A stretch of 64,000 nucleotides of DNA, taken from Schmidtea polychroa. Its lineage: Eukaryota. The translations under genes and the position numbers were made by a program. The DNA lies in assembly GCA_044892525.1 (NCBI GenBank), contig CM097885.1, forward strand, positions 10,604,001-10,668,000. The letters run 5' to 3'. Of this stretch, positions 2,386 through 64,000 are shown one piece after another. Numbering within the stretch: position 1 is the stretch's first letter; each line of letters begins with the position of its first letter. Below the pieces are notes generated by a model that did no database searches, was not told the origin of the DNA, and was given only the letters and a program-made list of their open reading frames with translations.

Positions 2386-2474
2386 AGAAAATGACCAAAT
2401 TCAAAATTATATTTTCTTGTTTTTATCACAAATTAAAACAAGAATAATAATATTAATTCTTTAATATTATTACA
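2386..2474 (-). repeat. 3' LTR (terminal 11 bp missing)
   Basis: 89 bp matching 5950-6038 with one mismatch. Confidence 0.93.
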
Positions 2475-24920: not shown

Positions 24921-24985
24921 ATTTTAAATATATTTGAAATTTTATTATATATTAAAATAGTAAAAATAATTAAATCAATTCCTAC

Positions 24986-25925: not shown

Positions 25926-26458
25926 TTTTCTAGTGAGCTTTTCACTTCGTTTTTTATATTGATTTTTTTTCTTTTTGATATCAATTAAAAAGAAAGTGAA
26001 TCTCTGTTTTGTGTCCGTTGGATACTGTGGCGGAGAAAGAATTTTTCGTTTTTTTTGTAATGCAAAAATGGTATTCTTCAAATCAATCAGCACTCCATCT
26101 CGCGTGTAAATGAAAACGAAAATCTAATTAAATCTCAAACATCCGATAGAAGTGTTTGTCCAAAAAAAAAGAAAATTAGCTATTTTGTGCATATTTACAA
26201 GCTGGAATCGTAAGATTTTTTTATTCTCTCTATCCGACTGGCGGCCAGTTTTCGAAGTAATTAATTTTTCATCAAATTACAATAACAAATGACATGACAT
26301 GATGTGACAAATGATTCGGATTTGTCAACGAAATAAAGTTTGACAGGTCTACAACAGTATTATAAAATATAATCTTTTAGCAAGTGTTTCCGTATGATGA
26401 CCATTTTCAATATGATTCAATATTCAAGGAAATGATATAAACATATGCATAAATTTAA

Positions 26459-42736: not shown

Positions 42737-44130
42737 CAGTGGTTCTCAACCTTTTTTAGCTCATGGCACATTGAGCTTAAATTTTTCGCGACACACCTTA
42801 ATCCCTCTCATCCCTACGATAGAAATATTTTTCAGTTTCTCAGTAATTTCAATTCGAAGTTTTTAAATTAAAAAAAATTCAAAATTAAAATTCGATATAA
42901 TTTTTGTTAAAAATATTGTTAAAAAGGTTTTATTTTTCCTGTTCGGATTTAACATTTTTAATGAGAAGGCTGAGCCTGCTTTCGAGAGAAAGTCAGGCTG
43001 AATCGAGGTTCTAATTTTGAAAGACGAGCACGCATTTTGTTGTCGATGTTAAGAAGTCGCTCTCCCTTTTTGAATTTTATTTCAGTTAGAGCCAAAAATC
43101 CGAATTCACAAAACCATGAAAAAAGAATACAATTTGTCGAACAAATCTGAGAGAAATTAAACTTTCAAGCCACCAGATTTTGTCATGAAGAAGAAATCCA
43201 AAATCTGCTTCCTCGACCTCGAAAGACGAAATAACTTCCACTTTAAAGTGAATAAGACGCTTCAAAACTTTTCCTTCGTAATCGGAATCCATTACATCAC
43301 AAACCTGAGAGAAAATTTGATATAGTTGACTAATTGAATCGACTGGTTCATGACAGATTGTATATTTTCTGGAAACGATTTAGCGACGAGAGCTTCTCTG
43401 TGGATCATGCAGTGAGTTGACGTTTGAATTCTTTTGAACCACGAGATTGACGAATCCTTTATTTTTTAATCTCATTGAAGGACAACCATCGTTGCTAATG
43501 CTTACACAGTTTTTCCAATTTTACTTGACAAGTGAAATATTCTCGTTCACCAGCTCAAAAATATCTTCACTTCTCGTGTTGTTTTTTAAATCTTTGTAAA
43601 ATAAGACTTGCCGTCTTTAACAAATTGAACAAATTCCAGAAGCTGAGCTTTTCCACTTATGTCAGTAGAATCTTCAAACAATCCACTGAGGGATCTTCCT
43701 CATCTTTCAGATCTGATGATAAATCTTCGATTCGGCAAGAAATTGTGCCATTTGACAATGGAACTTTCTTGACTTTGTTTGTTAAAATTGTTTCAACGAT
43801 GATAGCTAATGCAAGGGTGATAATCATTTCAGCTTCTGTATTTGATTTCTTTCGTTTTGACAACAATTGAGCCATCTTGTAACTTGCCATCAATCCTTTT
43901 TCGGGTATTTTCATGTACAATGAAAGTTTCTTTGCTTGTTTAGATTGTTGTACTGCAAGGTTTTCGAAGTATTCTTTTGATTTGTTGTTTAAAGCTGGAT
44001 GTTTAGGTTCAAAATATCGCTTCAATTTGCTTGGTACGAGTGCCTCGTTTGATAATGTTTTATTACATTTGAGACAGAATGGTGATTGGGACTCTTCAGA
44101 TTCTTTTTTTACCTGTCGAAACTTGATATG
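42737..44130 (-). mobile_element. Truncated hAT Charlie/Buster (ZBED5/SCAND3-like) element
   Basis: One TIR CAGTGGTTCTCAAC at 42737; fragments QCLKC-like, PSKLKRYF..KHP, VPLSNGTI, HCMIHREAL, WLESL and C-terminal KQAQPSH*. No second TIR found. Confidence 0.82.
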
Positions 44131-44272
44131 AAATTATTATTTTTATTAGCGTAAATTAATTGAAAATATTTAAATAAACACGTTAAAGACTATTAATAAA
44201 AATCGCCATTCGTACATCTTTTTCACTAGATATTTCGATACCATCACTATGATCAAGTTATCTACATTCACT

Positions 44273-45119: not shown

Positions 45120-48100
45120 TTAATGGGATAACAATTGGATAGAAGAGGAAACCAAAACGTATGTTTGCTCCTTGCATTTGCCATGCTCGAGATTGTCTGT
45201 GTCAATATCTAAATAGTTGATGATAATCGTATCGAATTATAAGAATGTTACTCTTTCTCATTCCAATTCTAGTGGGCTTCTCGCTGTTAAACATTAGACT
45301 GACGCGAGATTTCACCTTGCTCCATTCTTCCATCAATTTTTGTCGATGCTCCATTAGTTTGCGCTTGGTTTCATTAGACATCATCTCATCCTGATGGGCA
45401 AATTGTTGATTGAATTTGGCCATGTTCTTTTTAATGTTTTTGATTTCATTTTCTGACAACAAGCAAATTGGTCTCGGCCTCCAAAGGATCTGCTTCAGTC
45501 CCTGGAACGGTTTATCCATCAACAATCGCCCAGTGATACTGTGAAATGTGACACCACAATCCCCAGTTTCATTGATCAGATTCTGTCGATAGGACATCAA
45601 ATATCGACCGGTTGGATCCCAGACGAAATCGTTCAAATTGTTCGTTTCAACTCTCTTCAGAACCACTCCATCGTGACCATCAATGAATTCAATAAAGCTC
45701 GTATTGGGCGTGGAACAGGCGATAAATTGACCAGACGGTGACCATTTTAGCATTGTCATTCGTGTGGAGAATCCGAAATCCATAATTTTCTGGGTTTGCC
45801 CGCTGGTTTTCAAATCGTAAATCAGAATACTTGTAGACTTTTGATTTGAAGTAAGAAAGGCAAATTTTGAGCCGCTTGCTTCCCAATCATTGGCAACAAT
45901 TTGTGTTTTTTCACTAATTGGAATCTTTTCCACGGGGATTTCTTTCTCTTTAACTCGGTAAATTTCCAAAATTGCACTTGATCCCTGCAATGGATCGTGT
46001 GAGGTTTCAATTTCGGCAGATAGACGATAATTATTGATTTGTGGATATTATTATGAAAAGGTTTTGAAATCGATAATTAATGATAAGTTGGACAGTTCTT
46101 ATTTTGAAAAAGTGCAGAAATCGATAATTAATGATGAGTTGGAAAGTTCTCACTGAATAATTATGAAAAAGCACAAAAATGATAATTAATTAATCAACTA
46201 TACTCCTAAATTGTACAGACCTTGAGTCCCACAATTTCCATCAGTTAATCGACTTTACCCCAAATGACCTTGACCTTTCCTTAAAATACGATTGGCCCCT
46301 TAGGTAATTATTGATCACACTCCCCAATCAAAAAACGGTTGCGCGCCTGGTGTTCACTATTGGCATTATTAAGAGGTGAATATTATCAGGCATATTAACT
46401 TATGAACTCAAGTTATTCCTTTTGGTCTTATTTCACATGTCCTCTGGATATCGAGATAATTGTCATTGGCTATCGTGATTATCATATAGGGGGATTATAT
46501 CTAGGCGTGGGAAAAGGCATTCAAAAACGACAACAATATCCTATTATTAATATATCGATTGATAATATTTATTCTAATTGACTTATTAATTAATAATATC
46601 AATACGATATTATCCAATAATCTCTAATCCAAATTTTATTATCGTTTCAGTGGTGCTAAAGTTATTTTCTAATAATTATTATTTACTATTGATGATGGTA
46701 AAATTTTGGCAACATGATTTTAAAAATTCGACAACTGATAAAATAAATAATTTCTGTGTGCTCTTTGTCAGTTACAAAATTATCAGAGTGAATTCGACAT
46801 CAAATGGGAATTAAATCGATAAATTAATTTTGTCAATAAATGATTTTTTAATTAAAATAATTAATTTTGTTCATTATTGGAATATTGCAATTGATCATAT
46901 GGAAATTAAATCGATAAATTAATTAATTTTTGTCAATTATTGATTTTTCTAAATTAGAATATTTTTAAAAATGGAATTTTACTATCGATCAAATGGAAAT
47001 TAATTAATTTGTACATTTATTGAATTTTACAATAGATCAAATGATGGATATCGGTAAATTTAAATTATTGGTCTTTTAAGTCGTTCAAATTGATTAGCTT
47101 AAATCGAATAAAATATTGATTTATTATAACCCATCAACTGAAACTAAACCAATAAATTATTGTTTTGGCTATCGATGTTTTCTTTTTTACGTATCTCTCC
47201 TCAATAACCGCCAAAAAGTCGTCGATAAATAAATGAAATTATTGATTTTTTAATTAAAATAATTAATTTGTCATTTATTGATTTTGAATTGAAATAATTT
47301 AGTCCATTATAGCAATTTTACTATCGATCAAATTGAAATTTAATTGATAAATTAATTAATTGATTGTCAATTATTGATTTTTAATTAAATAATTTTGTCA
47401 ATTATTCGAATTTTACAATTGATCATATAGAAATTAAATCGGTAAATAGATTTATATTAAATAGATTTATTATAATCTATTAACTGAAACTAAAATCAAT
47501 AAATTATTGTTTTGACTAAAATCGATCTAATCAAATTGGTTGATAAACGTTTTAATAAAAAAATTAATAACTGCTTTTGTTTAAATTATCCAAAAATCAA
47601 TATAAAAAATAATTACTTACAATATATTAAAATTTATTATCGACGTTTTCCATTTCTCCACAATAACCGCAAAAAGTCGATAAATAAATTATATCAATTA
47701 TTGATTTTTTTTAAATTAAAATAATTAAAAAAATGGAATTTTACAATCGATCAAATTGAAATTTAATTGATAAATTAATTAATTTTGTCAATTATTGGAA
47801 TTTTACAATTGATCATATGGAAATTAAATCGACAAATATATTTATATTAAATGATTTATTATAATCTATTAATTGAAACTAAAATCAATAAATTATTATT
47901 TTGACTAAAATCGATCTAATCAAATATTAAATAAATCCTGATTGGGTGATAAACGTTTTTAGAAAAAATAATAATTGCTTTTGTTTAAATCATCGAAAAA
48001 TTCAAAAAATCCTAAAATCAATATAAAGAATAATTACTTACAATATATTTAAATTGATTATCGATGTTTTTCTTTTTCACGTATCTCTCGCCAATAACCG

Positions 48101-49371
48101 CCAAAAATTCGTCCTGTGAGTTCCATTTCAACGAGATTTCGGCAACATTAAAAAGCGTCTTGGCAAAAATTTCCTTCTTAGTCGGCAAGCTAATGAGAAC
48201 GATTCTAGCTGGAGTGCTCTCCTGCTCACCAACCCAATACGATATCAAATGGCCTTTGGATGACCAGGTGAAATCCTTCACTCCGACAATCTCGATGCTC
48301 TTCTTATCGACCATTGCACAGTTTTCCGATTGATAAACCGATATTTTGTCCTTTTGCTTCCTAGCGAAATATCTATCATCGAAACTCCAGCGAAATTCCG
48401 GCCAGAATTGATTTTCATCCTCGTCGGTTTTTGGAATGATAAACTCTCTAATCAGCGTCCCGGTTACGACATCCCATACATTGACAACAAAGGTTATATT
48501 GTTCAAGCTGAATGTCATGGCAAATCTGAAATGGAAGAGGAAATTCTGATTTCACGTTGAAGAGAAAGGAGAGATTTACTTTTCGTTCGGTGAGAAATGA
48601 ACATGTCGCGCTTTGGTGTGGAGAAATCGATTAACTTGTATGAATTTCTCGCCACCCCATAAAGCAATACCTTTGTCGTGGATTGTTGCCATATACGTGC
48701 CCAGGGGTGACCAGAGAACAATGGCTTCGGTAAAATCACTTCGATTCCATTTTGTTTCGAGATCTCGCGACGAATGTTCAAAAATTGTAATTTCACTTTT
48801 ACTGTGGATTAACAATTGGTCTCTACATTGACGCTGTAAAAGCCAAGAAAGCATATCGTTCTAATAATGGCCAGTGTCCAGTTAGAGATGGATTTAATTA
48901 TTTTAAAGCTTTACCTGATATCTCCAGACTAAGGGTTCTGGTTCTTTCCATTCATCATTTTCATTCATTAGTTGCTGGAATTCAGATAATATAATTGTTC
49001 GGAAAGTGTGGCTTTTGTCGAAAGCAACTCCGTTAAATTGCTTATGAGCCATCATAGCAATTTCGTCGGTTGGGAAGGTTACGAAAATAAAACCTTTGCT
49101 TTGATTGTTTTCATCCATGGGAATTACGACATTTTCACATTTCATTTTGCTTTTAATAAATTTTTTTAATTGTTCAACTTTACTTTCGGGAACAATAGGA
49201 AGTCCGGCAACTAAAAGTTGATTTCCTATGTTCTGTTCTTTGCATGGTTTAGGGAGAAGCTGTAATTCATTTATTTCTTTAAATAATTTATAATTATAAT
49301 AGGCATAATATATTTAACTGCATACCTTGATCAATTATTTGTTCAATATTCATTTCACTTATCTTCGTCAT
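45120..49371 (-). CDS. EIF3B: Translation initiation factor 3 subunit B; complement(join(45120-45208,45252-45984,48042-48525,48580-48860,48915-49276,49326-49371)), 664 aa
   Basis: RRM (VAGLPIV, KGFIFVTF, FDKSHTF); WD-like repeats WSPLGTYMAT, GIALWGG, FSPNEK, WPEFRWS, WSPSGQF, WDPTGRY, WRPRP; C-terminal IDTDNL. All introns are GT-AG with consistent phases; total 1995 nt. Confidence 0.93.
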
Positions 49372-50966
49372 TGACGTTTTAAATATTAATTAATATTAAA
49401 ACAAGGTATTTAAATTATTACTAAATAATTTTTTAATTAAATAAAATGAGATATGAATTCGAATTTAGATATTTATTAGTTTTGTTAATTAATTATTGCA
49501 AACAGAATCTCATACTTTATAATCAAATTGAAAATTACAAATTAAAATAATTTGAGAATATAAAGTTAAAAGCAAATATACAAATACATATATTGAAGTG
49601 TAGTTGCTATCCTAATTTTGTTCCTGTTGGCATACTAACTCATTTTATGGTAGAACGGTTCCCTTATACTGGTAGGTTATGAGTGGGGAAACCTTTCGTA
49701 TCGATATGTGTCTTATCCTGTCGACCCTTTCGTTGTATCTACATTCCTTTCGCAACCACATAACTATTTATTTGACCTCTAAACGCCCGTCGCGAGTTAC
49801 TTTGGTACATCGATTCAGTAGAAGGTGAGCCTATCATAAGGACTACTGATATCATAACGCGCCATTCGGTTCATGGGCTTACCGTAGAAGGTGTAACAAC
49901 TTATTGAATCTTGTCTCTTTATGATTTTATAATACACCATAACTTTATAGTTGATTTTTGTATCAGATTTCTGGATTCGGAATTTTAACGTAAAACAAAT
50001 GAAATTTTCTAAGAATTTGAAATACGAGATTGTGCGATCGGCAATTTCTGCCAAGATATCTACGATTATGTTGACAAAATATATCGAAGTTATCCATATT
50101 ATGAGAATATTTTTAATAGAGTAATGTTCAATTTATTGTTCAGTCGAATTCGTTACAATTTTAAATTATTCCAGAAAATCAAACTTTCATTTGACTTCAA
50201 GAAATTTTTTCAAAATGTTTTGTTTAATTCGTTTCTTTACTAACTTTTCTTTTCACTAGTCACATGATTTTATTCGACGTGCTTCTAATTATATGATTCT
50301 TTCTAATTTACATGTTGTGGGTCACGAATAAGGTAAACTTTCTTATTTCTATACGTTCTGCCATGTCAATGGTTGTATTATGTCTACATTCCTCGCGCAA
50401 CGTTGATGCTGCGATTTAACGGGTTACTGTCAGTTAAAGGTGAGCCCTAACATATTGGGATACTAATGCTCTGACCCGCCTCTTGGTTCATGAGCTTCCG
50501 TAGGTATAGCACTCTAATTTTTCATATTCCTCACCATATTACCATCAATTCCTAGCCCTTTGTTGTTGGGTTTTCCCTTAAATTTCCATGATTGAAAATA
50601 GAATTTAATGTGAATCTAAAGAGTACGAAATACGAGATTTAGTTAATATGTAGCCTATGTTAAAATGTCTCCAATGATGTTGATTAAAATACATCGAAAT
50701 TACCCATATTCTATAACTACCTGATTTAATTAAATGGCGTTTAATTTATTGTTCAATTAAATTGGTTATAAACGTAAATTGTTTGGCAAAATCTCATACT
50801 CTCTTTGATTTCAAAATGACGAAAACATTTTATTCTTAACTAATTTAAAATAAATAAATTATAACTGCTTCAACTTTTAACAGTTTTATAAATAAACTTA
50901 CAAATATGTAAGAGCAAGCAAAATAAAAAAAATCATTGAACCACTTTGAAATTTCTTGGTGACACA

Positions 50967-51207
50967 AGTAGTGGGTATATGACCCTCATGGACACATCCA
51001 CCCTGATAAAAGCTACTTCCAAACACTTAATATATACTAATAACACCCCTAATTTTTACACTTTTAACTCTTTTAGACCCTCTATTTTCAACACAAAAGC
51101 CAAGCTTTCTATTTTAAGCCCCCTATAAACAGAAAGAAAAAAAGAGAAGAACAAGAAACTCACAAACTATCAATGGCTATGTCCATGAGGGTCATATACC
51201 CACTACT
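50967..51207. repeat. Polinton terminus with an internal 28-bp perfect inverted repeat
   Basis: AGTAGTGGGTATATGACCCTCATGGACA at 50967-50994; reverse complement at 51180-51207. Confidence 0.92.
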
Positions 51208-51306
51208 ATAGCAAGCAAGCCGCCAACTTGACAAATTGCAAACTAAAATTATAAATATTTTAAAATCTTGAAAACATAGTATCCAATAAAAAAATTTTTT
51301 AAAAAA

Positions 51307-54300
51307 ATGAATCCTAATATTTATGCTTGCACTATTTGTCAAAAAAATTTTAAAAATAAAACTGCACTACTTTCACACCAAAAATCAAAAGCTCATTTAT
51401 TAAAAATAAATAGACTTGATAATTCAAACTCAAAAATCTGTACTAAATGCAAAGTAAGATATTTACTTTCAGGATATGATAAACATTTTGAAAATTGTAT
51501 TGGAGTTCCTAAAAATAGAGAAAAATTTGAATGTTCTATATGTAAATCAAAATTTAATATAAAATCTTATTATTTAAAACATGTAAAAAAATGTGCTATA
51601 AAGAATAACCAACCAATACCAGAAAGTCATTCTGAAGATTCTGATATTGAACCTGAACATATTGAAAAAGAAAAATATAATTGGGACAACTTTAATCATA
51701 TAGATGTATTTACAGAACAAATGTTTTCAACAATCACAGATTGTATAAGAAGAAATAAACAAAACATAAAAAATTCAATGGATAATGCTATAAAAAAATT
51801 TGGTCAATCAAGATTTAACATTATAAAATATAAAGTTAGAATCTCTGCAAGATATTGGAGGGGAGAAGAAATAGAAACAACTCCTCTAGATGTTGATATC
51901 GAATCATCATTTAAATATTTATTCTCAACAAAGGGAATAAATAAAATCATCAAAGATTTAACTCAAGAGATGGAAGAACAACAAGAACAAGTAGAACAAG
52001 AATTGGGAGAATCTAATTTAAGATTCCACTCTTTCAAATCTATAGAAATTGAATATTGGAGAGCAGCACCACCAAATCCCAAATCTTTTATTCGCACACC
52101 ATTCAACTCCATCTATGTTATAAATGTAAAAAATAAAGATGATAAATGTTTCCAATGGTCAATACTTGCACATTTACATCCTCAAGCAAGGAATCCTCAA
52201 AGGGTTTCAAAATATAAACAATATGAAAATGAATTGATTTATCCAACAGGATTTAAACATCCAATGAAAATTGAAGATATTCCAAAATTTGAAATTTTAA
52301 ATAATATTAAACTTAATATTTATGAACACATTCCAGATAATGATAATTTAAAACATATTATACCAATTTATATTTCAAATAAAGAATTATTAGAACAAGA
52401 TAAAAATAGAGAAATAGATCTTTTAATATTAGAAGAGCAAAGCTCTACAGGACAGGATGAAGAATATAGAGAATATGTTTTTAATGAAGAAACTGAAGAC
52501 GATGGGCAAAACCCAACAGATCAAGAAGAAAGCCCAACATTAGAAAAGAAACAACATTATATTCTAATAAAAAACTTTCAAAGTTTTATGCGTACAATAA
52601 CACAAGTTAGAGGAGGAACAACTTGTAAAAGATGTCTTCACTATTCAACCTCTAAAAACTCAATGATTAAACATGAAAGATTGTGTGACAAGAACCAAAC
52701 AGCATTAATTAAAATGCCTATAAACTCAGACATGAACTTTAAAAATTATTCAAATTTATTAGAATCAATGGGTGTAATATATGGAGACTTTGAAGCAATA
52801 AATATAAAACAAGACTTGGAAAAAGAATATTTAAAAATAATAGAAAAAAATAATTTATTAGATTCTTGGTGTGATTATTCAGATCGAGTTCCCCTTGAAT
52901 CTCTATCTGAGAATATGAAAAACTTTCTAAAGTTAAATAATAAATCCTATACAATAAAATTAACCAAACAAATACCTTCGGCTTATAAACTATTTTTTAA
53001 AAGTAATTACCCCAAACTCATAGAATCTAAAGAATATTCATATAGAGGAACCTCTGAAGAAGATGTTTTAAATCATTTTACTAAAAATATAAATGATCTA
53101 GAACATGAATTATTTAAAATATTAAAAACAGAATATAAAATAAATTTTTCAACTGAACAATTTGAAGAATATAAAAATTCTACAAACTGTTGGATGTGTA
53201 AACAATCCTTTGAGAGCTTCGCGACCCCTGAGAATCAACTCCTTGAAGATTCTTCAGATATCGAGTCTATTGAAGAAGAAGAACAAAGAATGTTTCATGA
53301 AAGACAACTACAATCTTCGAAAAACATAAAAGTACCAGATCATGATCATTTTAAAAAATTAAATAATTATCGAGGAGCAGCTCATACAAACTGTAATATA
53401 AATTGTAAAAAACCTAAATTTATACCAGTTATATTTCATAATCTTTTTGGATATGATGTACATTTATTTATAAAGGCCCTAGCTGCAAATGCTAAAAATT
53501 CTTTCAAACTAATAGGTTTAACAAAAGAAAAATATAAATGTATACAATATGGATGTTTAAAATTTATAGATTCTCTAAATTTTTTAGGAATGTCTCTAGA
53601 TGCAGTAGCAAAAACAATGAAATCAGAAGATTTTAAATATACAACCACCATGGTTTTGATAAAAAATAATATTCCCTTGGAAGAATATCCAACATGTTTA
53701 GCAAAAGGAATATATCCATATGATTATATTGATTCATTTGATAAATATAATGAATCCTTACCAGAGAAAGACAGCTTCTTTTCAAACCTTCAACAATCAA
53801 ATATTACAAATCAAGAATATTCTCGAGCAAATAAAATGTATCAATTATTCAACTGTCAAAACCTTGGAGAATATACCGACATGTATTTATCCCTTGATGT
53901 TTATATTTTAGCTGACTGTTTTGAAATCTTCTGTAAAGCCTTTGAATTAAAACCCTATAATTATATAACATCTCCCTCTTTAGCTTGGGATATATTGTTA
54001 TATAATATATGGACTGAAAGTCATTCTGAAGAGGGTGATAGGAATAAAATAATAGAACTATTAACTGATCTCGATATGTTTAATGTATTTAAACATAATA
54101 TTAGAGGGGGTGTTTCCTCTGTAATGGGGGATAGAGAAATAACTACAAATAATTCCTTAACCATTTGTAGAAAATTCTTTAAAGATACAGATGCAGACTA
54201 TATAGAAGTAAAAACACAAGAAGATTTTAATTTAATAAAACAAGGTTTATCAAATCCATGTGAAATATTTTATACTGATGCAACTGCTCTATATGGCGGT

Positions 54301-56673
54301 GTAATGACTCAACATTTACCAATTTCTAATTTCTCATGGGTTGATATTCCTAAAGAAAAAGATAAACTAGAAGATCTTTTAAATGAAATCCTATCAACTC
54401 CTAAAGATTCAGAATTTGGATATGTTATAGAATGTGATCTCGAGTATCCAGATGAAATAAAATCTAGAACTAGGTATTTCCCATTTGCACCAGTAAAAAG
54501 AAAAATCAGCATTGAAGAACTTTCAGATTGGCAAATCAGACAAAATAGATCAACTACTACAAAACTTTTATGTGATCAAACAAATCGAACTTATTATCTT
54601 TGTCATTATAGGTTATTACAATTTTATCTTTCGCATGGAATGATATTAAAAGATGTTCACAGTATTATAAAATTCAAACAAGCAGCATTTATGAAAAAAT
54701 TTATATATGGAAACATTAGAAAAAGAAATGAAGCAAAAAGAAATGGAAATGCTTTTCTAGACATGATTTATAAACTTTTAAATAATGCAGTCTTTGGTAA
54801 GACTATGGAAAATGTTGATAAATATACTCGAGTAGAACTTTTATCAAATACTCCAAAAGACTTTGCAAGATATAATCGAATGCTTGGAAAACCTACATTT
54901 AAAAATGCTGAAGTATTCTCAAAGAATCTTGTGGCAATTGAAATTCAAAATAGTGAAAAAACTTATAACAAACCAATCTTTATAGGCTTCTCTATTTTAG
55001 AATTATCAAAACTTCAAATGTATGAGACTTATTATGATATTCTAGTACCTCACTTTGGAGATCGAATATCAATGCATGGTATGGATACAGACAGCGCCGT
55101 ACTATCGCAAGTGCAACAAGTGCAATCGCACTGGGCCCCCTATTTTTGAGGGGCCCCAAATATTAAATACATTAGAAAAACTTCTCCAATACCATAAATT
55201 ACTACGAATTGAAAGAAAAAAAAAAATTTAAAAATTCAAAATTCGTTTAACTTTCAAAAAAAATCTAGTTGGCAACGATTTAATTTGAAACAAATATACC
55301 TAATAATTCAGTTGTTTTTTGCTTCAAATTGTTATCTTCTGTTTGTTTATTATATCGTCTTATTAGTGGAAAGTAATATTATTTCAAAGTTATAAACAGA
55401 AATAAGTTTTATTTTAATTTTTTGTGGATAATGTGCATCGTAAATTATAAAATACGGTATTATTAATAATTTACATTTTTTGTGTCTACCGTTAGTATAA
55501 GTGCGGATATTACATAGTAATTTTAGGTTTAACGATTCGTTTATATATTTAATAAATTGTAATTTTCACTTTTCAAATTAAATTTGAGTTAACGAACATA
55601 GTTTGAAAACATATACTGTATATATGTCGCAGGAAAGACTTTCTGGATTAGCAATACTGTCAATTGAAAATGCAACAGCCAGAACAATTGATTACAATGA
55701 CATAATTGATGAATTTGCCAGCAAAAGAGCTAGAAAAATTACTTTATAATTGCTATTATTTTTTTAAATACAATCAATAAAAAATTTATTCAAATTTAAA
55801 AAAAAATTTTTTTAGTTTCTGCACAGGGCCCCCAAAAGTTACAGCACGGCGCTGGATACAGATAGTATGTTTTTAAAAATATATAGCAAAGATGTTAAAA
55901 AAGAAATATCTGAAAGTGAAATCCTAAGTAATTTAATAAATGCATCTGGAGAATTATTCACCTTTAAAGATGAAAAACCAAATACCCCAATAACTGAGGC
56001 TATATTTATCAAGGCTAAACAATATTCACTAGAAATGATACAAGCACCAAAGATGAAAAAACACACAATTAAAATCAGAGATATAAACCCAATAACCTTG
56101 GAAATGGAAGAAATAGAATATACAAGTGAACAACCTATAATAACCTTTGATACAAAAACTCTTAAAGATAACAAAAGTAAAGGGATACAAAAATCTGTAT
56201 CCAAAACAATTGCCAATCAAGACTATAAAGATTCTCTAAATAAAAATTATATAGATAAAATGGTTGAGGTACATCAACTTAAATCAAAGAAGCATAACAT
56301 GTATTTAGAAGAATCAGCCAAGATAGCATTATCAAATTATGATGACAAAAGATTTATTCTAAGTGATTTAAAAACAACTCTTCCAATTGGAAATGATTTA
56401 ATCCCAATAATAAAAAATCTTGAAAAAATAAATGAACTTTATAACCTAAATATTACCGATCTTGATATTTATAAAATCGAGATTATATACCCAGAGCTTC
56501 CTCAAAGAGTTCCACAAAGACTTGCACAAAAACCACTATATAATCAAGTTCAAAACCCAATATCCATAGATGTAAAATATTTAAATATAGATTCTGAATA
56601 TATTCAGGGATTATCAGGACAGGAATTCGAATCTCATAGATTGATGTTAGAGAACATCCAGTTTCAGTCATGA
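51307..56673 (+). pseudogene. pPolB: Protein-primed family B DNA polymerase, split by a MITE; join(51307-55091,55863-56673) gives 1531 aa
   Basis: N-terminal zinc fingers; DDKCFQWS; exonuclease GDFEA and FHNLFGYD; HNH/EndoVII-like DHDH..YRGAAH..CN; KGIYPY; polymerase DATALYG, KLLNNAVFGK, MDTDS; YDDKR. Removing the insert and one TSD restores a single frame. Confidence 0.95.
55092..55854 (+). mobile_element. Non-autonomous hAT (Tip100-like) element, 763 bp
   Basis: TIR CAGCGCCGT(A/G)CT; perfect 8-bp TSD GATACAGA (55084-55091 and 55855-55862); carries a transposase tail MSQERLSGLAILSIEN...IDEFASKRARK*. Confidence 0.95.
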
Positions 56674-56730
56674 CCGAATTTGATCTTTTTAGAGTTTAAT
56701 CAAATAAAAAAATAATTTTTTGATTTAAAA

Positions 56731-56964
56731 ATGGATAATCAGGATTTAAAATTAATATATGAAAATATAAAATCATATTATAGTGATTCAAAAGTTATTT
56801 TATCTAAAACATTATTTAATGATTTAATTAATGAATTTTTTCAATTAAAGGATACCCAAATCTCAAAAATATTTCTCGTCAAGATTTTTCTTGTCGCTTG
56901 TTTAATATTTTCATTACTCTTTGTCTTAATTTTTCTTGTTTTTCCTCAGCCGAATGTTTTATGA
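56731..56964 (+). CDS. Small hypothetical protein with a hydrophobic C-terminus
   Basis: TAAAAAATG start context like the other Polinton genes, but it overlaps the convergent ORF by 86 bp. Confidence 0.35.
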   Translation: MDNQDLKLIYENIKSYYSDSKVILSKTLFNDLINEFFQLKDTQISKIFLVKIFLVACLIFSLLFVLIFLVFPQPNVL

Positions 56965-57253
56965 CTATAATCTCCTTAGACATTCTTTTTAAATATTCAT
57001 CATCAACATCTTCAACTTTTTTAAATAGATAATCTCTTTCCTCCTTTACCTGCCTAAGTTCTTCATTTGCATTCATAGAATCTTCTCCTAAAGCTTCTAT
57101 TAAAACCCTTATTGCTGGCATTCTAACAATCAACTGTTCTCCATACAAAGCCCGAGTTGTTAAAGATTTTTCTTTATATTCTAGTAATGCAGCTTTTGAC
57201 TCTTTTTTAATAATAGGATTGTGTCTTATTAAATCTAAAACATCATCTTCCAT
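56879..57253 (-). CDS. Polinton hypothetical helical protein, 124 aa
   Basis: Part of the tightly packed minus-strand array; TAAATG start. Confidence 0.7.
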   Translation of the reverse strand: MEDDVLDLIRHNPIIKKESKAALLEYKEKSLTTRALYGEQLIVRMPAIRVLIEALGEDSMNANEELRQVKEERDYLFKKVEDVDDEYLKRMSKEIIVIKHSAEEKQEKLRQRVMKILNKRQEKS

Positions 57254-57284
57254 TTATTAACATAAAAATTTAAGTAAAAAAAAT

Positions 57285-57986
57285 TCATCCACGATTTAAA
57301 ACTTTATCTAATTCTTCATCTCCTTCAGAATGACTTTCAGAATGACTTTCAGAATGACTTTCAGAATATCCCGACATCTCTTCCTTTTCTTTATTATCAA
57401 AGATTTCAAAAACTGAAGGTTGATTCCTAGGGATCGCGAAGCTCTCAGAGGTCAAGTTCCCAGAATGCTCCCCAGAACCTAAAATATCTTTTGACTTTGT
57501 ATCCATAGACTTTGTATCCATAGACTTTGTATCCATAGACTTAATATCCATAGACTTAATATTCTTAAAAATACTATTTACTCCATTAGATTTAAGAGCT
57601 GAACAAATATGATTCTTCTGAGAAGATTTAAAAACTTTTGAACAATCTGTACAATAAAAAGATTTCTCCTGAAGTCCCAAGATATTTGTTTTAGGTTTAT
57701 TTTCAATCTTATTTTCAACCTTGCTCCTTTTATCAGCATGTCCCTTCTCTTTCTTTTTACCCTTAACAGCATGCCTAAAAGGAGAAGGCATTCCTAAATC
57801 ATTTCTTATTCTTCTCATAGTAGAATCTGAAGTGCCAAGCATTTTACAAATTTGAGATTGAGTAAAATTAGGATTCTCACTTAAAATCTTTGTAAACCCT
57901 AAAGCTTTTTCTTTTAATAAAAACATGTTTAATTTAGAAGTATCAACTACTACAACTTGATCGACTTTTTTTAAAAATTCATCCAT
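57285..57986 (-). CDS. Polinton putative DNA-binding protein (HTH plus zinc finger), 233 aa
   Basis: FTQSQICKMLGTSDSTMRRIRNDLG is HTH-like; CTDC...HIC; SMD(I/T)K and SESH repeats. Confidence 0.75.
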   Translation of the reverse strand: MDEFLKKVDQVVVVDTSKLNMFLLKEKALGFTKILSENPNFTQSQICKMLGTSDSTMRRIRNDLGMPSPFRHAVKGKKKEKGHADKRSKVENKIENKPKTNILGLQEKSFYCTDCSKVFKSSQKNHICSALKSNGVNSIFKNIKSMDIKSMDTKSMDTKSMDTKSKDILGSGEHSGNLTSESFAIPRNQPSVFEIFDNKEKEEMSGYSESHSESHSESHSEGDEELDKVLNRG

Positions 57987-58004
57987 TTTATAAGTAAGAA
58001 TTTT

Positions 58005-58622
58005 TCAATAAGAATTCTTCATGGAATATTCTTTCAACCACTTCTCTCTTTGACTCTTTTTTGTTCTTTCAATCTTTCCATCTTTCTTTAATCTTAAAAC
58101 CTCATTTTTAATATCTTGTATTATTTGATTTGATTTCATTATTTCATCATCAGTCAGGATTCCATCTTCTAAAGCTTTTAATTGAAATAAAAATAATTTA
58201 GAGATTCCTATTTCTATTGTATTACAAACTTCTCTATATAAACTTTTCTTTTTAGAAGTATAAGATACTGAAACCATTTCAGTCAAGAATCCATCAGCCA
58301 CAGAAATACTTCCAAGTATTACAGGTGCAATTGTTAAAACTGGCAAGGTTGCAGGTAAAATGATTGTTAATATTGCAGATGTAAATCCTAAAGAATAACC
58401 TACAATTTTTAAAACAGTATTCCCTTTATTCCATCTATTTTTAATTTTTTTATAATGCTTTAATAAATCTTGTAAATGTAAGGTTTCTGATTTAAATTCT
58501 TTTACTCTCATGACCTCTAATTCTGTAGGGGCTGAAGGTTTAGAACCTTTGAGACCTTCGGAAGCTTCAGAATAATATCCCGATGACAATTCTGGGTAAA
58601 TTTTTTCTTCTCTGTCTTCCAT
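58005..58622 (-). CDS. Polinton membrane protein, 205 aa
   Basis: IYPEL N-terminus, a coiled segment, a central hydrophobic hairpin and a helical C-terminus. Confidence 0.75.
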   Translation of the reverse strand: MEDREEKIYPELSSGYYSEASEGLKGSKPSAPTELEVMRVKEFKSETLHLQDLLKHYKKIKNRWNKGNTVLKIVGYSLGFTSAILTIILPATLPVLTIAPVILGSISVADGFLTEMVSVSYTSKKKSLYREVCNTIEIGISKLFLFQLKALEDGILTDDEIMKSNQIIQDIKNEVLRLKKDGKIERTKKSQREKWLKEYSMKNSY

Positions 58623-58642
58623 TTTAATAATTAAAAAAATAA

Positions 58643-59623
58643 TTAAACTCTCAACAGGACTTTATTATGAGGTATCAATATTCGAATATCATAAGAAGCT
58701 CGTCTTGAGTGAATATCTTTATACAACTCCATCAACGCTTTATGAACTTCAAGAACATCAACCTTTCTTTCATAAAATATTAAATCTATATAATGTACAA
58801 GTGTGCTTTTAAAAATAATCTCTTTACTTTTAGTTTTATGTGCGATGTATGAATCAGTCATACCTGGACGAGTATTAACATGCCAATCTCCATTTGGTAA
58901 ATCATAACTAGCCATTATAACATCACCCTTTTCAAGCTTACTATTATAATCAGATTTCACAAACCATTTCATTCTTTCGCCATCATCATCAAACAAAAAG
59001 AAATAAGGATCAATAATCTTTACAACCATAAAAACACTCCAGGATTTACTATTTGTTGTTATTAAACTTGGTTCTATAAAATGTTTAAAGTTATCAGGAA
59101 GTAATGTTTTATTCTGAGGTAATTCAGCAGCTCTTTTTCTAATACTATGTGTGGTGTTAATGTGTGTTCCATGAGACTCTAAATTTGAAATTCTTTTATT
59201 AAATGATGTAATCAACTCATTTATTATATTATATATTGTATTAAATTTAGTATTCATAATTTGTTTATCTTTAGAGTTTAATATGCTAGTATTTAACTTT
59301 ACAACTTGTTCAGTTAACAGACTTTGTAACTTGTCAAATTTATCATTAAATCGTTGTTCGATATTATCAATTTTTGTTGTTAATGAACTTTCAATTCTTG
59401 TTGTTGTTAAATCAGTATAATTTTTAACACCATCAACATATTTTTTATTAACTGCATCAGCTTCATCAGTTGGAAAAGATAATTCTTTTATCTTGTGTCC
59501 ATTTAAATTTAAATCTCCTTTCATCGAATCACCTCTTTCATTAATATATCTCTTTTCTGTAAGAAATATAACATCTTCATCTTTTAATCCATCATTATAT
59601 AATCCAAACTTGTTATAATTCAT
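58643..59623 (-). CDS. Fiber-like virion protein, 326 aa
   Basis: GDSMKGDLNLNGHKIKELSFPTDEADAVNKKYVD fiber/stalk motif, long heptad region and globular C-terminus; adjacent to penton. ATG at 59623. Confidence 0.7.
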   Translation of the reverse strand: MNYNKFGLYNDGLKDEDVIFLTEKRYINERGDSMKGDLNLNGHKIKELSFPTDEADAVNKKYVDGVKNYTDLTTTRIESSLTTKIDNIEQRFNDKFDKLQSLLTEQVVKLNTSILNSKDKQIMNTKFNTIYNIINELITSFNKRISNLESHGTHINTTHSIRKRAAELPQNKTLLPDNFKHFIEPSLITTNSKSWSVFMVVKIIDPYFFLFDDDGERMKWFVKSDYNSKLEKGDVIMASYDLPNGDWHVNTRPGMTDSYIAHKTKSKEIIFKSTLVHYIDLIFYERKVDVLEVHKALMELYKDIHSRRASYDIRILIPHNKVLLRV

Positions 59624-59657
59624 TTTTATAGAAAAAATCAAATAAAAAATAAAATCC

Positions 59658-60467
59658 TTAAACCTGTTTCAAAGATAAACACATTGAAATCTTTTCTCCA
59701 TTAAAACTAATTAACTCTCCATCTTCATCAACAATTCTAAAACTAATATCCATTATATTTTTTCGACATAAAGGTAAATAATTTGGAGGATTCATTCTTT
59801 CAACCATTTTATATCCTACTCGTACAATATTAGAAGGAAAGGAATATAAAATATTTGCATGTTTACCATTATTGTATGATCCCATTATACAATCACACTC
59901 TATATTTATAGAATTTGTATTTGTTATTTGTATAATATTTTTAGATTTAATAGTTGATGGTGTATATTCTCTGACTTCAAAACCTAAAATAGTATGAAAG
60001 AAACTAGAAGTAGTAACACCAAGTCCAACATTTTTTAAAGTTAATATACATTTTGAAGTTTGTACATCTGCTTTTATTTCTACATCTCCATTTGTTTCTT
60101 TTAAAATTGTTTTAGCTAAATCTACTATTTCATATGATCCTGGTTCAATTGTTATAATGTTATATTCCCTAGAAGTAATCTTTTCATATTCACTATTTTT
60201 CAATATACTAGGTTTAATAAATGAAACAGAAACCCGAGGTATTTTATCCTTCATAACTATAATAAATTTATTATTATTATTATTTATATTAAAAATAGTA
60301 TTAAAACAGGAAAACCACAAGAGTCCTAATTCATAATTTAAATCTTGATCTAAATTTATTGAATCTTCAAAATTTATAGTAAAGTCTGATTCTTTTGAAT
60401 TTATTAATAAACTTCTTGAATATTTATTTGACATTATGTTTACCATTTTTTTTAAATTATCCTCCAT
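59658..60467 (-). CDS. Minor capsid protein (penton, single jelly roll)
   Basis: F.INF...I.L, I.PGSYEI.DL, INIECDCI.GSY.NG...ILYSF, YLPL....I..I.FRI.DEDG..I.FNG. Confidence 0.85.
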   Translation of the reverse strand: MEDNLKKMVNIMSNKYSRSLLINSKESDFTINFEDSINLDQDLNYELGLLWFSCFNTIFNINNNNNKFIIVMKDKIPRVSVSFIKPSILKNSEYEKITSREYNIITIEPGSYEIVDLAKTILKETNGDVEIKADVQTSKCILTLKNVGLGVTTSSFFHTILGFEVREYTPSTIKSKNIIQITNTNSINIECDCIMGSYNNGKHANILYSFPSNIVRVGYKMVERMNPPNYLPLCRKNIMDISFRIVDEDGELISFNGEKISMCLSLKQV

Positions 60468-60483
60468 TTCTTATAGTAAAAAT

Positions 60484-60927
60484 TTAAAGTAGAGATTTTA
60501 AATCATTATAAATTTCTTGGATTATAGATTCAAAATCTCCTTTGGATTTATTTAATCTATACAAAACATATAAGCATAAAATACCACATATTTTATTATT
60601 CCAAGGTTGAACTTGTAAAGAATTAAAAATATAGTCTCCCGAGAGATAATCTTCAACTTCTTTAGTAGGTTTAATCCCAAAAGAATCAAAGTATATAGAT
60701 TTGCCTTCTCTATTATATATACAAACCCAATGAGATCCTTTTTCATTTGAATTTTGATAATTTATAATGATATTCTTTGGAGTGTCTTCTTTCAGACTTG
60801 ATAATTCATCATTCATTAATATTTTTATTTTTAAATTTAAATAATTTGCATAATCTTTTAAATCAAAATTTGTTTTTGCATTTATTCCAAATGTTTTTAA
60901 AAAATCTAATATTGAAGGACAAGTCAT
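60484..60927 (-). CDS. Adenain-like cysteine protease
   Basis: GSHWV, YFDSFG and Q......CG..C give the His/Asp/Gln/Cys catalytic set. Confidence 0.92.
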   Translation of the reverse strand: MTCPSILDFLKTFGINAKTNFDLKDYANYLNLKIKILMNDELSSLKEDTPKNIIINYQNSNEKGSHWVCIYNREGKSIYFDSFGIKPTKEVEDYLSGDYIFNSLQVQPWNNKICGILCLYVLYRLNKSKGDFESIIQEIYNDLKSLL

Positions 60928-60950
60928 TTTATATTTTATAACTTCGTATT

Positions 60951-61864
60951 TTATAACTTCGTATACTTGATAAATTTATCTTTTGAAATTATTCCTTGTT
61001 TTAACAAATCTTTAGAAATCTTTAAAATATTAGAATCTAAATTATTATGTCCTGCTTTCCTTGCAGATAATAGTTTTCTTAATTCAATAAAAAGATTGAT
61101 GGGATTTCCAGACATTCCCTCCCCCTCTGTAACAATATAACCCTTTTCATTTCTATCTAAATAATTCTTTAAATCTTGAATATGTTTTGCTTTAGAACTA
61201 GCTTTTATTGATCTTATAAAATTTAAATATTTTTCAATTTCTTTAATATTATCTGAAGGATATCCACAAATTAATTTATTAAAATCATCTGTTTTTCAAT
61301 TTCTTTAATATTATCTGAAGGATATCCACAAATTAATTTATAAAAATCATCTGTAAATTCAAAGTCTAAATATTCATTATTATAAACATTTTGTGAATGA
61401 ATATGTGATTTATTTTCTGAAGTTGTATATAAAGTAAAGTTTTGTTTATTAATTGTTATTATTGTATATCCTTCAGCATTAGTCTTAAATATGGGTCTAA
61501 TTGAAGGAGGTAAATCATCATTAATTTTAGGATTGAGTTTAAGACGTTTTGTTTTTAAAAACATTTCTTCTTCTTCCACATTAGAGGTTCTTCTACGTTT
61601 TCTTTGATTTCTTCCTTCACTGGATTCTTTTTCTTTCTCCTCCCACTCTAGTTCTTTTATTTTTTGTTTTTTATCCAACTCTTTATATTTTGCTTGCACA
61701 TTTAAATCTAATCCTTTTATAGCTTTAATTGTTGGTTCTTGTTGTTGTGTTATTATCTCATTTAATATTATAGATTCAGTATGTTGACTTGTATCTTTTT
61801 TATTATATTTATCTTCTTCTGATCCTAATTTTTTTAAAAGTGCTAATCTTTCTTCATATACCAT
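60951..61864 (-). pseudogene. Polinton conserved core-type protein frameshifted by a 62-bp duplication (283 aa when repaired)
   Basis: The repaired frame ends ...EGEGMSGNPINLFIELRKLLSARKAGHNNLDSNILKISKDLLKQGIISK...; this L.LL...K.AG.N...I..I...L...G.I tail is recalled as typical of Polinton proteins. Confidence 0.75.
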
Positions 61865-61900
61865 TTTAATGGTATTAAAAATGGTTCGAAGGACAAAGTA

Positions 61901-62509
61901 TCATTTTAAATTTATACCATTTTGGAGTTCGAAGGGTTTCAAATATAAACCCTTCCCATTTTTAGTTTTACAAATACACCCATTCTTTAAAGACTTACAT
62001 ATTTTTTTAAAATCATCTTTATCCTTTGAAGATAAAGATTTAGATGATGAAATTTGATTTTTTAAAAAATCATTTAAACCACGGCCTTTATAAGGATCAA
62101 GATAGAGACCTTTTCCAATGAATGGAGTCCCTTCAGGCAGAGTCTCTTGAGGCTTTTGTCTTTCGAATGCTTTCCCCTTTAATAATTCAATCTCTTTTAA
62201 TATTTTTTCTTTTTCAGCATCGGCCTTTTGACCTTCTTTTATTATTTTTTCTTTTTCTAATTGTTTATTTCTAGCATCTCTTGAATTATTCACTACAGTC
62301 GCAACACCACCAGCTATTCCAGTTGCACCAGTTATTGCAGCAGTAATGATAGGTATTAAAGCAGCTAATGGAAGAATACCTCCTTCTTTGATATGCTCTT
62401 TAACTTGTTCTTTTACATGTTTTCCAATAAAATATTTTTTACCATTGATTACAACTGATTTACTTTTATTTGAATTTATTAATTCTTGAAAGGATTCTTC
62501 TTCTGTCAT
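61901..62509 (-). CDS. Adenovirus pX-like core/membrane-active protein, 202 aa
   Basis: GGILPLAALIPIITAAITGATGIA resembles adenovirus pX GGILPLLIPLIAAAIGAVPGIA; repeated GKGLYL / GRGL. Confidence 0.75.
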   Translation of the reverse strand: MTEEESFQELINSNKSKSVVINGKKYFIGKHVKEQVKEHIKEGGILPLAALIPIITAAITGATGIAGGVATVVNNSRDARNKQLEKEKIIKEGQKADAEKEKILKEIELLKGKAFERQKPQETLPEGTPFIGKGLYLDPYKGRGLNDFLKNQISSSKSLSSKDKDDFKKICKSLKNGCICKTKNGKGLYLKPFELQNGINLK

Positions 62510-62520
62510 TTTTTAATAAA

Positions 62521-63324
62521 CAAAATAATCGAAGACCTCCGGATACTTGGAAACCAATTTTAAATAGACATAAGAGTAAATTTAATAATAAAGTATTTCC
62601 TGATAATTTTAGATTATTAATTGTTGGTTCTTCTGGATGTGGAAAGAATGTACTTCTTTTGAGGATGTTGCTTGAAGATGATTTTTTAGATTATAATAAT
62701 TTAATCTTTTACTCTACAACCATAAATCAATCAGAATTACAACTTTTGAAATGTGGATTTGAAAATAAATTAACTAAAAAAGCAATAATTGATATTTTTA
62801 AAAATCAACATAGATGTCCTGAAGAAGTTTTTCAACCTTGTGATATGGTTGATTGGTATAAGGAAAAGATTTTAGAATCAGATATTAGTAATAAAAATGA
62901 TTATATTTGTGAAGATGAGTGGATCCAAGTTTTATTCTCTAATAAACCTGAAGATGTTTTACATTGTGATTTACTTCCTAAAGATAAAAAGAATCTAGTT
63001 ATATTTGATGATGTTGTTAATATGAAAAATCAAGAGATTCAAAAGAGTTACTTTACAAGAGGAAGACATAATAATTGTAATGTTATTTATATATCTCAAA
63101 CTTATTATGCTTTAGATAAAAATTCAATAAGAAATAATTCCAATTGTTTTATATTTTTTAAATTAGATCGCCGTGATAAGAATATGATTTATAATGATTT
63201 ATTTTCAAATGTTGAACCTGATAAGAATATGTTTGATATGTTTGTTGATAATCATTGGAAAGAAAAATATAATTATATTTATTTGGATAGAGAAGAAGCT
63301 GAAATGTGGAAAAGTTTATTTTAG
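62521..63324 (+). CDS. A32/FtsK-HerA-family DNA packaging ATPase (start codon uncertain)
   Basis: Walker A GSSGCGKN, Walker B LVIFDD, RGRHNN, ISQTY and IRNN. Confidence 0.9.
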   Translation, partial: QNNRRPPDTWKPILNRHKSKFNNKVFPDNFRLLIVGSSGCGKNVLLLRMLLEDDFLDYNNLIFYSTTINQSELQLLKCGFENKLTKKAIIDIFKNQHRCPEEVFQPCDMVDWYKEKILESDISNKNDYICEDEWIQVLFSNKPEDVLHCDLLPKDKKNLVIFDDVVNMKNQEIQKSYFTRGRHNNCNVIYISQTYYALDKNSIRNNSNCFIFFKLDRRDKNMIYNDLFSNVEPDKNMFDMFVDNHWKEKYNYIYLDREEAEMWKSLF

Positions 63325-63335
63325 GGCTTGTCGAT

Positions 63336-64000
63336 TTAGAAATCTGTTTTCTGTAATTCATTATTGTAAAATCTACCCAATATTTTTTCATTATTTAAAT
63401 CAATGATGCTATATGTTATTGGAGTTGTATGATGTATTTTATTTATAATAAAAATTTCATTTGTCCATTTTGCTGTGAATCCTTTTTCAAATTTATTTTT
63501 ATATTTAAATATTCTTACGCGGTCACCAATTTTAAACTTTGGTTTTATAGGGGTTGTATCAACAATAACATCATTTTCAATATTTACCACTTTAATGGTT
63601 TCAGGATTCAAGGAAGCATTTAAGGGTGTTAATTTTATAGAACTATGTACATCATTATTATATTCATTTACAATCTTTTGTAACAATTCATTGTTCCATT
63701 TTTGTTTTCCAATAGCAGTAAAATATTTCCACATTTTATTTTTTAATGTTCTATTTAATCTTTCAACCACAACTGCTTTTCCTTCGTTTTCTGTTGAATA
63801 TAATTTAATATCATTTTCATTTAAAAACTTTGTAAAAACTTTGTTATAAAATTCTGTTCCTTTATCACACCATAAATATTTTGGAATTCTTAGATGTTGT
63901 TCAAATATATTTTCAAATGCTTCTGTAATAGAATATCCTGTTTTATTTTCTAAACATCTTGCAAAAGCAAATCTTGTATATAAATCTATTACTGTTAAAA
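63336..64000 (-). CDS. Polinton retroviral-like (rve) integrase, 5' part outside the window
   Basis: Frame open from 63998: LTVIDLYTRFAF..., WCDKGTEF, VERLNRTLK, YNNDVHSSI, FKIGDRVRI, FYNNELQK. Confidence 0.93.
   Translation of the reverse strand, partial: LTVIDLYTRFAFARCLENKTGYSITEAFENIFEQHLRIPKYLWCDKGTEFYNKVFTKFLNENDIKLYSTENEGKAVVVERLNRTLKNKMWKYFTAIGKQKWNNELLQKIVNEYNNDVHSSIKLTPLNASLNPETIKVVNIENDVIVDTTPIKPKFKIGDRVRIFKYKNKFEKGFTAKWTNEIFIINKIHHTTPITYSIIDLNNEKILGRFYNNELQKTDF

Follow-up and report, generated by a model that had tools for sequence, protein, structure and literature searches.

The window analysed here is a stretch of 64,000 nucleotides of Schmidtea polychroa DNA (assembly GCA_044892525.1, contig CM097885.1, positions 10,604,001 to 10,668,000, forward strand), and its last 13 kb (50967–64000) are the left part of a Polinton/Maverick element that opens with the letters AGTAGT and is directly preceded by GACACA. 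Outside one transposon insert, 11,508 of the 12,271 bases of this part are coding (94%), and the spacers between intact neighbouring genes measure 11–36 bp. The genes are preceded by a T-rich stretch and then an A-rich ATG context (T-rich/AAAATG), a pattern that is uniform across the element. No TBP gene was found, and among 11 upstream stretches an ATAAAC box occurred only before the frame of the packaging ATPase. A preliminary description of the window, made from its letters, had listed replication, integration and virion genes with very short spacers, and these were recovered. The features of the element are given below, with open reading frames (ORFs), terminal inverted repeats (TIRs) and target-site duplications (TSDs) abbreviated.

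50961–50966, plus strand: candidate 6-bp TSD (GACACA), left copy only, placed from the sequence and from host-flank contigs of sequencing runs X1 and X3, which cease matching at 50966.
50967–51207, no strand: left terminus, a 241-bp unit running from AGTAGT to ACTACT and closed by an inverted copy of its first 34 bp.
51307–55091, plus strand: N-terminal piece of pPolB (PF03175, E 3.6e-12, 46 bits, weak, above the cut-off; motifs).
55092–55854, no strand: non-autonomous hAT-type insert of 763 bp, with CAG-starting TIRs and an 8-bp TSD (55084–55091 and 55855–55862).
55855–56673, plus strand: C-terminal piece of pPolB, 44% identical to the C-terminus of the relative P0160 and beginning where the N-terminal piece stops.
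56879–57253, minus strand: 124-aa ORF, unplaced, with no Pfam or PHROG match, in a stretch that few relatives share.
57285–57986, minus strand: 233-aa ORF with a weak helix-turn-helix (below cut-off), a CxxC motif and a low-complexity tail (phrog_14131, DNA-binding protein, E 7e-5).
58005–58622, minus strand: SLATT-like membrane protein of 205 aa, with a disordered N-terminus carrying YPxL (and, here, PSAP), a long helical hairpin and a hydrophobic tip.
58643–59623, minus strand: fibre-like protein of 326 aa, with a tail-fibre-type motif (phrog_2710, E 2.8e-8, residues 30–94), a coiled coil and a variable C-terminal head.
59658–60467, minus strand: penton, a single jelly-roll minor capsid protein, by the fold match of a model (pLDDT 75).
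60484–60927, minus strand: adenain-like cysteine protease with His, Asp, Gln and Cys present, its catalytic motifs being unchanged across the four relatives aligned (4 of 4).
60951–61864, minus strand: core-type gene, frame broken, with a 62-bp duplication at 61230–61353.
61901–62509, minus strand: pX-like protein (PF05829, E 6.6e-7, above the cut-off).
62539–63324, start approximate, plus strand: A32/FtsK-type packaging ATPase, between pX and integrase (PF04665, E 2.8e-8, 34 bits, cut-off 22.8).
63336–64000, minus strand: C-terminal part (220 aa) of an rve integrase that runs off the window (PF00665, E 3.5e-8, 34.1 bits, cut-off 32.6).

The matches to PF03175, PF00665, PF05829 and PF04665, together with the penton fold and the fibre motif, supported the Polinton identity put forward in the preliminary description. 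The Polinton traits present are a PF03175 pPolB, whose motif C is cut by the insert, an rve integrase, an A32/FtsK ATPase, which is broken in this copy, and a single jelly-roll penton. Both pieces of pPolB match one relative end to end. The N-terminal piece carries a C2H2 finger, OTU-like Cys and His motifs, Exo I–III, an EndoVII/HNH-like insert and polymerase motifs A and B; the published domain order of Polinton PolB is TP-vOTU-EXO-PALM (PMC11071308). The OTU-like domain was recognized at motif level only (Cys motif at residues 278–286, His motif at 417), and among the 120 pPolB relatives listed its Cys motif recurred in 108 and the EndoVII-like motif in 98. Scoring of 8000 candidates gave 442 relatives at E ≤ 1e-20, the closest of which were three metagenomic proteins with 46, 41 and 38% identity, while the named relatives were mostly insect and spider proteins at about 30%. 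The pPolB tree that the preliminary description had proposed was built as a quick tree of 61 rows (60 of these were the top-ranking members among the 120 relatives, the other being the N-terminal piece), in which the element grouped with P0160 and P0161 (SH-aLRT 100); the tree carried a long-branch warning and contained neither an Alpha nor a Beta adintovirus reference. The weak PF03175 match (46 bits) fits a divergent class such as the Beta-type (group 1) adintovirus polymerases, a type defined by clustering with the Terrapene reference. The EndoVII insert is presumably a further tie to the Beta type.

Several minor observations were made on these polymerases. A 33-bp inverted pair (88%) links 53207–53239, within a variable pPolB stretch, to 57419–57451 in the tail of the 233-aa ORF, and relatives skip about 120 bp at the former position. 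One related polymerase, P0208, is attributed to a weevil's Rickettsia endosymbiont, probably because that assembly includes host DNA. Another, P0179, has the extra Pfam domains PF05204 and PF14890, which we take to be of intein type.

Among the virion genes, the penton was identified by its predicted fold. The model aligned with the mavirus penton at Z 11.9 (225 aligned residues, root-mean-square deviation 6.2), with a Sputnik chain at Z 11.7 and with a PBCV-1 capsid chain at Z 13.1, other vertex and capsid chains scoring Z 9–13; the unrelated rows of the same search remained at Z ≤ 7, and minor capsid proteins in BFVD were matched at E values down to 2e-14. The stalk of the fibre-like protein is nearly identical to those of two relatives (81% and 78%), while its first 25 residues and its C-terminal head differ. 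A scan of IMG/VR with the fibre alignment returned only short tail-fibre-motif matches, at 25 loci, and the fibre head gave a weak SPRY-like lead (0.84). The core-type gene gave no family match, and its label is our assumption from its position and a motif. A single-sequence search of the PDB with the protease recovered no protease. The several orphan genes of the preliminary description mostly proved to have relatives, and only the 124-aa and 233-aa ORFs remain unplaced; the latter may encode a regulator, as judged from its helix-turn-helix and its PHROG match. A further 77-aa ORF (56731–56964, plus strand) overlaps another ORF, has no match and is doubtful.

Relatives of the virion and integration genes were also found in metagenomic sequences. 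The penton alignment recovered seven related loci, including a 6.7-kb contig (L002) whose integrase is 50%, ATPase 48–50%, penton 44% and pX 38% identical to those of the element, and which also matches the core-type gene. The capsid gene of this contig is of the double jelly-roll type (PF21738, E 4.5e-28), and the contig differs from the 13 kb of the element in its gene order, in a phospholipase A2 (PLA2) fused to the integrase and in the presence of the capsid gene. Its integrase ORF (148–1473) also encodes a zinc finger at the N-terminus and a PLA2 domain of parvovirus type (PF08398, E 3e-12), and no chromodomain match was obtained for it. Between integrase and capsid gene lies an ORF with no Pfam match, which we take to look HNH-like. 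IMG/VR yielded no relative when scanned with the ATPase, the penton alignment, the 233-aa ORF or the capsid protein of L002.

The copy in the window is damaged at few places, and the three lesions named in the preliminary description are real. First, the hAT-type insert, whose ends read CAGCGCCGT, interrupts the codons of polymerase motif C, and the two copies of its 8-bp TSD are identical (8/8). The earlier term MITE (miniature inverted-repeat transposable element) is better replaced by non-autonomous hAT-type element; this assignment rests on marks that we take to be typical of hAT elements, namely the CAG-starting TIRs and the 8-bp TSD. A 53-aa transposase-like coding remnant near 55588–55746 may resemble hAT C-termini; it had no Pfam match up to E 5. 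A contig of run X1 contains 326 bp of the insert without any difference at a depth of 509, compared with about 40 for the flanks (about 12-fold), and the insert is a member of a young multi-copy family of its own. Second, the 62-bp tandem duplication at 61230–61353, the copies of which are 61/62 identical, shifts the frame of the core-type gene; both pieces of that gene match single ORFs in L002 and in another of the metagenomic loci, L004. Third, the ATPase frame is open over 62449–63324 with no ATG ahead of Walker A. The P-loop of the ATPase is also non-canonical just after the lysine, where L002 is canonical, which is possibly a fourth lesion. Across the 10,275 coding bases of those genes with relatives, not one stop codon occurs, and neutral change is thereby limited to at most 0.46–0.73% per site (95%, under three transition biases), in support of the youth that had been suggested for the element. 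The copy is young, yet predicted from these lesions to be unable to copy or package itself; at most it may be moved by its siblings, provided that its ends are whole.

We read the element as a copy, inserted recently and by now dead, of a Polinton/Maverick family (Polintoviricetes) that is multi-copy and has a divergent, EndoVII-bearing pPolB, in an AT-rich animal genome, and we give this reading a probability of about 0.88. Related copies were seen in public sequencing runs. Part of the stretch is present in 17 of the 24 runs listed, and the contigs of four were aligned to the window. Many contigs of relatives were present, in agreement with the intact siblings expected by the preliminary description to the extent that related copies exist; no single contig covered the element from end to end, and no sibling was seen at full length. 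Some of the contigs lack the insert: in X1, three join 55081 to 55853 and so represent relatives that are free of it. Depths of 35–46 were recorded for the flank contigs of X1, and single contigs at depths of 1747 and 2020 are about 87% like the element. Summed contig depth, which is no copy number, ran in X1 at about 2–7e4 over pPolB, 2–3e3 over 56639–57772 and 0.8–2.7e5 over 57773–64000, and the other three runs were alike. This profile hints that the virion arm is more widely shared than the present pPolB and accessory stretch, and 56639–57772, which holds the two unplaced ORFs, is possibly a variable accessory slot.

The same steps in depth raise the question of whether this copy is a mosaic, in which the pPolB arm and accessory stretch of one subfamily were joined to the virion-integrase arm of a larger family, by recombination or, less likely, by mis-assembly. 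The recurrence of the steps in all four runs, a fibre N-terminus unlike those of two near-identical relatives, and the module swaps reported for adintoviruses (PMC8502044) speak for such an origin. The depth, however, cannot be read as copy number, and the spacers and the upstream pattern are uniform from one end of the element to the other. We consider a mosaic origin possible without favouring it; it is compatible with the reading of the element as a young, dead Polinton copy rather than an alternative that would exclude it.

Run X8, presumed to be RNA, was considered as a sign of expression and rejected. Its depth was 2–363 over the element, 621–652 over the exons of the neighbouring eIF3b-like gene and near 0–2 over the intergenic flank; the signal was not counted as expression because its course along the element follows the one seen in the DNA runs, and carried-over DNA from a family with multiple copies accounts for it. 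No RNA run was found among the listed runs that contain part of the stretch.

The left boundary of the element was defined at the nucleotide level; Polintons as a class are bounded by TIRs on both sides and by a TSD of 5–8 bp. A flank contig of X1 matches the window to 50966 and continues with 23 letters unlike it, and a flank contig of X3 stops at 50966; because both leave the window there, the boundary is fixed independently of the element's own sequence. The first 34 bp of the element recur as an inverted repeat at 51174–51207 (32/34 identical, E 2e-9), and the left end is therefore able to fold back on itself; the predicted DNA fold of the 241-bp end unit has an energy of –34 kcal/mol, computed without a shuffle control. 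Between the mirror copies, the halves of the unit show a purine/pyrimidine skew. The idea that this unit is a separate mini-element was rejected, as no TSD surrounds it and only 99 bp separate it from the start of pPolB.

The CpG content of the element differs from that of its surroundings. The CpG observed/expected ratio is 0.31 in the element's genes and 0.93–1.04 in the host genes, the gypsy-type and the hAT-like sequences of the window, and CpG across codon junctions numbers 22, against a mean of 49.7 and a minimum of 33 in 100 synonymous shuffles. CpG was also low in five of the seven related metagenomic loci (0.43–0.63). Depletion of CpG looks like a trait of the lineage, perhaps acquired from time spent in a methylating host. 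This contrast with the host, together with the fact that no contig of the four runs bridges 50966/50967, would also be expected if free viral DNA or a contaminant had been joined to the host by an assembly error. We regard such an error as very improbable, since the start of the sequence coincides with an end of Polinton type, a hAT insert of host type lies within it together with the TSD, and relatives abound in three organism A runs as well as in one run without a label.

Several observations weigh against the reading of the element as a young, dead copy of a Polinton family. The capsid gene, the right TIR and the second TSD are not seen within the window, the element running past 64000. The protease match is weak (Pfam C5, E 0.045; adenovirus protease in the PDB, E 0.7–1, with the catalytic motifs aligned). 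Adintoviruses typically have a C-terminal chromodomain in their integrase (PMC11071296), and the integrase C-terminus of the element lacks it, rve being its sole family match with no chromodomain found. The best of the sequencing runs contains just 0.50 of the sampled words, and several sites, among 40 of 1635 differences listed, differ from every covering contig in all four runs; the nearest represented relatives are therefore about 2% away. The empty allele that the flank contigs suggest at the insertion site was seen in one contig in each of two runs. Lastly, the family is known here from DNA sequence alone. The family is young, and it is probably polymorphic for presence and absence.

Because its integrase lacks a chromodomain, the element was filed as an adintovirus-like Polinton/Maverick and not as a strict adintovirus. 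Adintoviruses in the strict sense (PMC11071296) are also characterized by a hexon that BLASTP recognizes reciprocally with reference hexons. With the animal Polintons/Mavericks (Polintoviricetes; Eupolintoviridae, formerly Adintoviridae; PMC8502044, PMC12451622) it shares, as far as these sources describe them, a pPolB with OTU-like motifs, rve, A32/FtsK, penton, pX and fibre, and it is also like them in its dense gene array and its AG-starting end, with a possible further likeness in its weakly matching adenain-like protease. It differs from them in a pPolB only distantly similar to those of insects and spiders, in an inner inverted copy of its terminus and in an integrase without a chromodomain. 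Polintons, Mavericks and adintoviruses have been treated as one group (bioRxiv 10.64898/2026.06.19.733378), adintoviruses have been renamed Eupolintoviridae (PMC12451622), and Polintons occur across invertebrates (PMC10748475, PMC11131425; general background in PMC6431247). Planarian Polintons are described as a piRNA-controlled flatworm class silenced through SMEDWI-2 (PMC8532177), to which the element was likened by description only. The element is a further lineage of a class that had been reported throughout the animals, planarians included; our literature search found no paper on a Platyhelminthes Maverick capsid together with TIRs.

By analogy with the class, an active copy would excise, and its linear DNA would be copied by the protein-primed polymerase (PMC11071308, PMC8502044), the OTU-like protease releasing the terminal protein. 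The ATPase would then package the DNA into a shell of double jelly-roll type whose vertices would bear penton and fibre, the adenain-like protease would act on pX and core proteins to mature the particle, and the rve integrase would re-insert the genome with a 6-bp duplication. From the gene set we infer that intact members of the family may form virions, as the preliminary description had supposed. A family that moves in the nucleus as a transposon only, its virion genes kept by recent descent and not by use and no particles being made in the present host, is the other way to account for the same genes. For the most part, Polintons of animals have been studied in silico (PMC10748475), like the present family, which would agree with such a life. 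We nevertheless find it rather unlikely: the virion genes are open and full-length when set against their relatives, it is mostly the head and the N-terminus of the fibre that differ from close relatives, which suits a protein facing the host, and the summed depth peaks over the genes for virion and integrase. A young family whose set of virion genes is almost complete provides material for asking whether animal Polintons make particles.

We further analysed the 205-aa membrane protein, which has 179 relatives among cluster representatives. Motifs were counted in 110 near-full-length relatives, picked from 150 listed, and the structure was modelled from 106 aligned rows. The model (pLDDT 85.5) consists of a loose N-terminus of about 30 residues and then the hairpin, and two hydrophobic segments were scored in 80 of the 110 relatives. 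YPxL was present within the first 60 residues in 45 of the 110 (shuffled mean 0.9, maximum 5) and in none past residue 60. Among the 106 aligned rows, [LIVM]YPx[LIV] was found in 80, although most search matches did not reach the N-terminal part, and YP in 96, compared with 2 past residue 60; the proline of the motif was retained in 100 and the tyrosine in 97 of 101 filled rows. The YPx[LI] region is N-terminal, poorly ordered and otherwise unconserved. Fold matches in BFVD were best to invertebrate iridovirus proteins (IIV-22 S6DF61, E 4e-6; others to 3e-4) and then, weakly, to SLATT proteins, and Atlas leads pointed to SLATT two-helix effectors (0.76–0.78). The fold search of the PDB gave generic helical bundles only (Z ≤ 10.7), and the 25 Pfam families listed, out of 29 obtained with 106 members, did not include SLATT.

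YPXnL and YPXL/I belong to the motifs that bind ALIX (PMC4880917, PMC3244986), and an iridovirus has been reported to bud via ALIX, Tsg101 and Nedd4 (PMC4880917). We tentatively propose, from the conservation of its motif, that the 205-aa protein could recruit ALIX through YPx[LI] and help particles to leave or to become membrane-wrapped. Some points weigh against this proposal. PSAP, tried as a second family trait, was rejected, as it occurs in 12 of the 110 relatives and the nearest relatives read ASAP. SLATT is marked on the maps of the Hydra and Stylophora adintoviruses (PMC8502044, Fig. S2 text), and abortive infection or lytic egress has been suggested for SLATT-type proteins (bioRxiv 10.64898/2026.10.13.758929). 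The protein could accordingly be a pore-forming effector of SLATT type, acting in lytic exit or antiviral defence, with a YPx[LI] that serves sorting or structure and is unrelated to ALIX; we give this a little less than an even chance. Its fold neighbours include many SLATT two-helix effectors, the suggested activity of such proteins and the scarcity of PSAP point the same way, and YPxL also fits the tyrosine sorting pattern Yxx-hydrophobic. A plain sorting signal, however, would not need the proline, which is as conserved as the tyrosine, and the N-terminus around the motif has little order and is not otherwise conserved.

The SLATT-type proteins of Polinton-like viruses and invertebrate iridoviruses resemble the 205-aa protein in its predicted fold, and a conserved N-terminal YPx[LI] is unmentioned in the available portions of that literature. 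Likewise, a literature search, at the level of titles and abstract openings and with broader queries dominated by papers on the ESCRT machinery of endosomal sorting, found no paper linking Polintons to ESCRT. Extending the ALIX proposal, one might picture a branch of animal Polintons whose particles would exit without lysis through a SLATT-like protein, its gene placed among the virion genes between those of fibre and regulator, with a YPx[LI] that recruits ALIX/ESCRT-III so that capsids are wrapped or released, a device that invertebrate iridoviruses would share; the branch would still transpose here, and the inner mirror copy of its terminus would let a displaced strand rebuild the origin locally. 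As a whole, we judge this picture unlikely. The YPx[LI] motif nevertheless offers a cheap, single-protein handle on how such particles might exit cells.

The host sequence next to the element was also inspected, and Rfam gave zero matches within 49000–64000. The nearest gene is the following.

45202–49371, minus strand: host eIF3b-like gene, exons partly seen, with an RRM and an eIF2A-type propeller; divergent from the element and not belonging to it.

Its candidate starts (49371/49353, minus strand) lie 1.6 kb from the element, at the distance given in the preliminary description. An intron of this gene (46800–48080) contains AT-rich repeats of 30–80 bp at a spacing of 62–433 bp, and the flank between the gene and the element holds an old direct repeat (50053–50200 and 50662–50814) with 70% identity, its copies about 610 bp apart. 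Elsewhere in the window are a laminin N-terminal plus EGF gene, which marks the host as an animal, a broken gypsy-type retrotransposon (2470–5707), two hAT-like transposase remnants (17446–19159 and 43657–44133), the gypsy-type and hAT-like labels being our assumption from motifs, and a netrin-like host gene (24975–26123) with an open frame of 382 codons.

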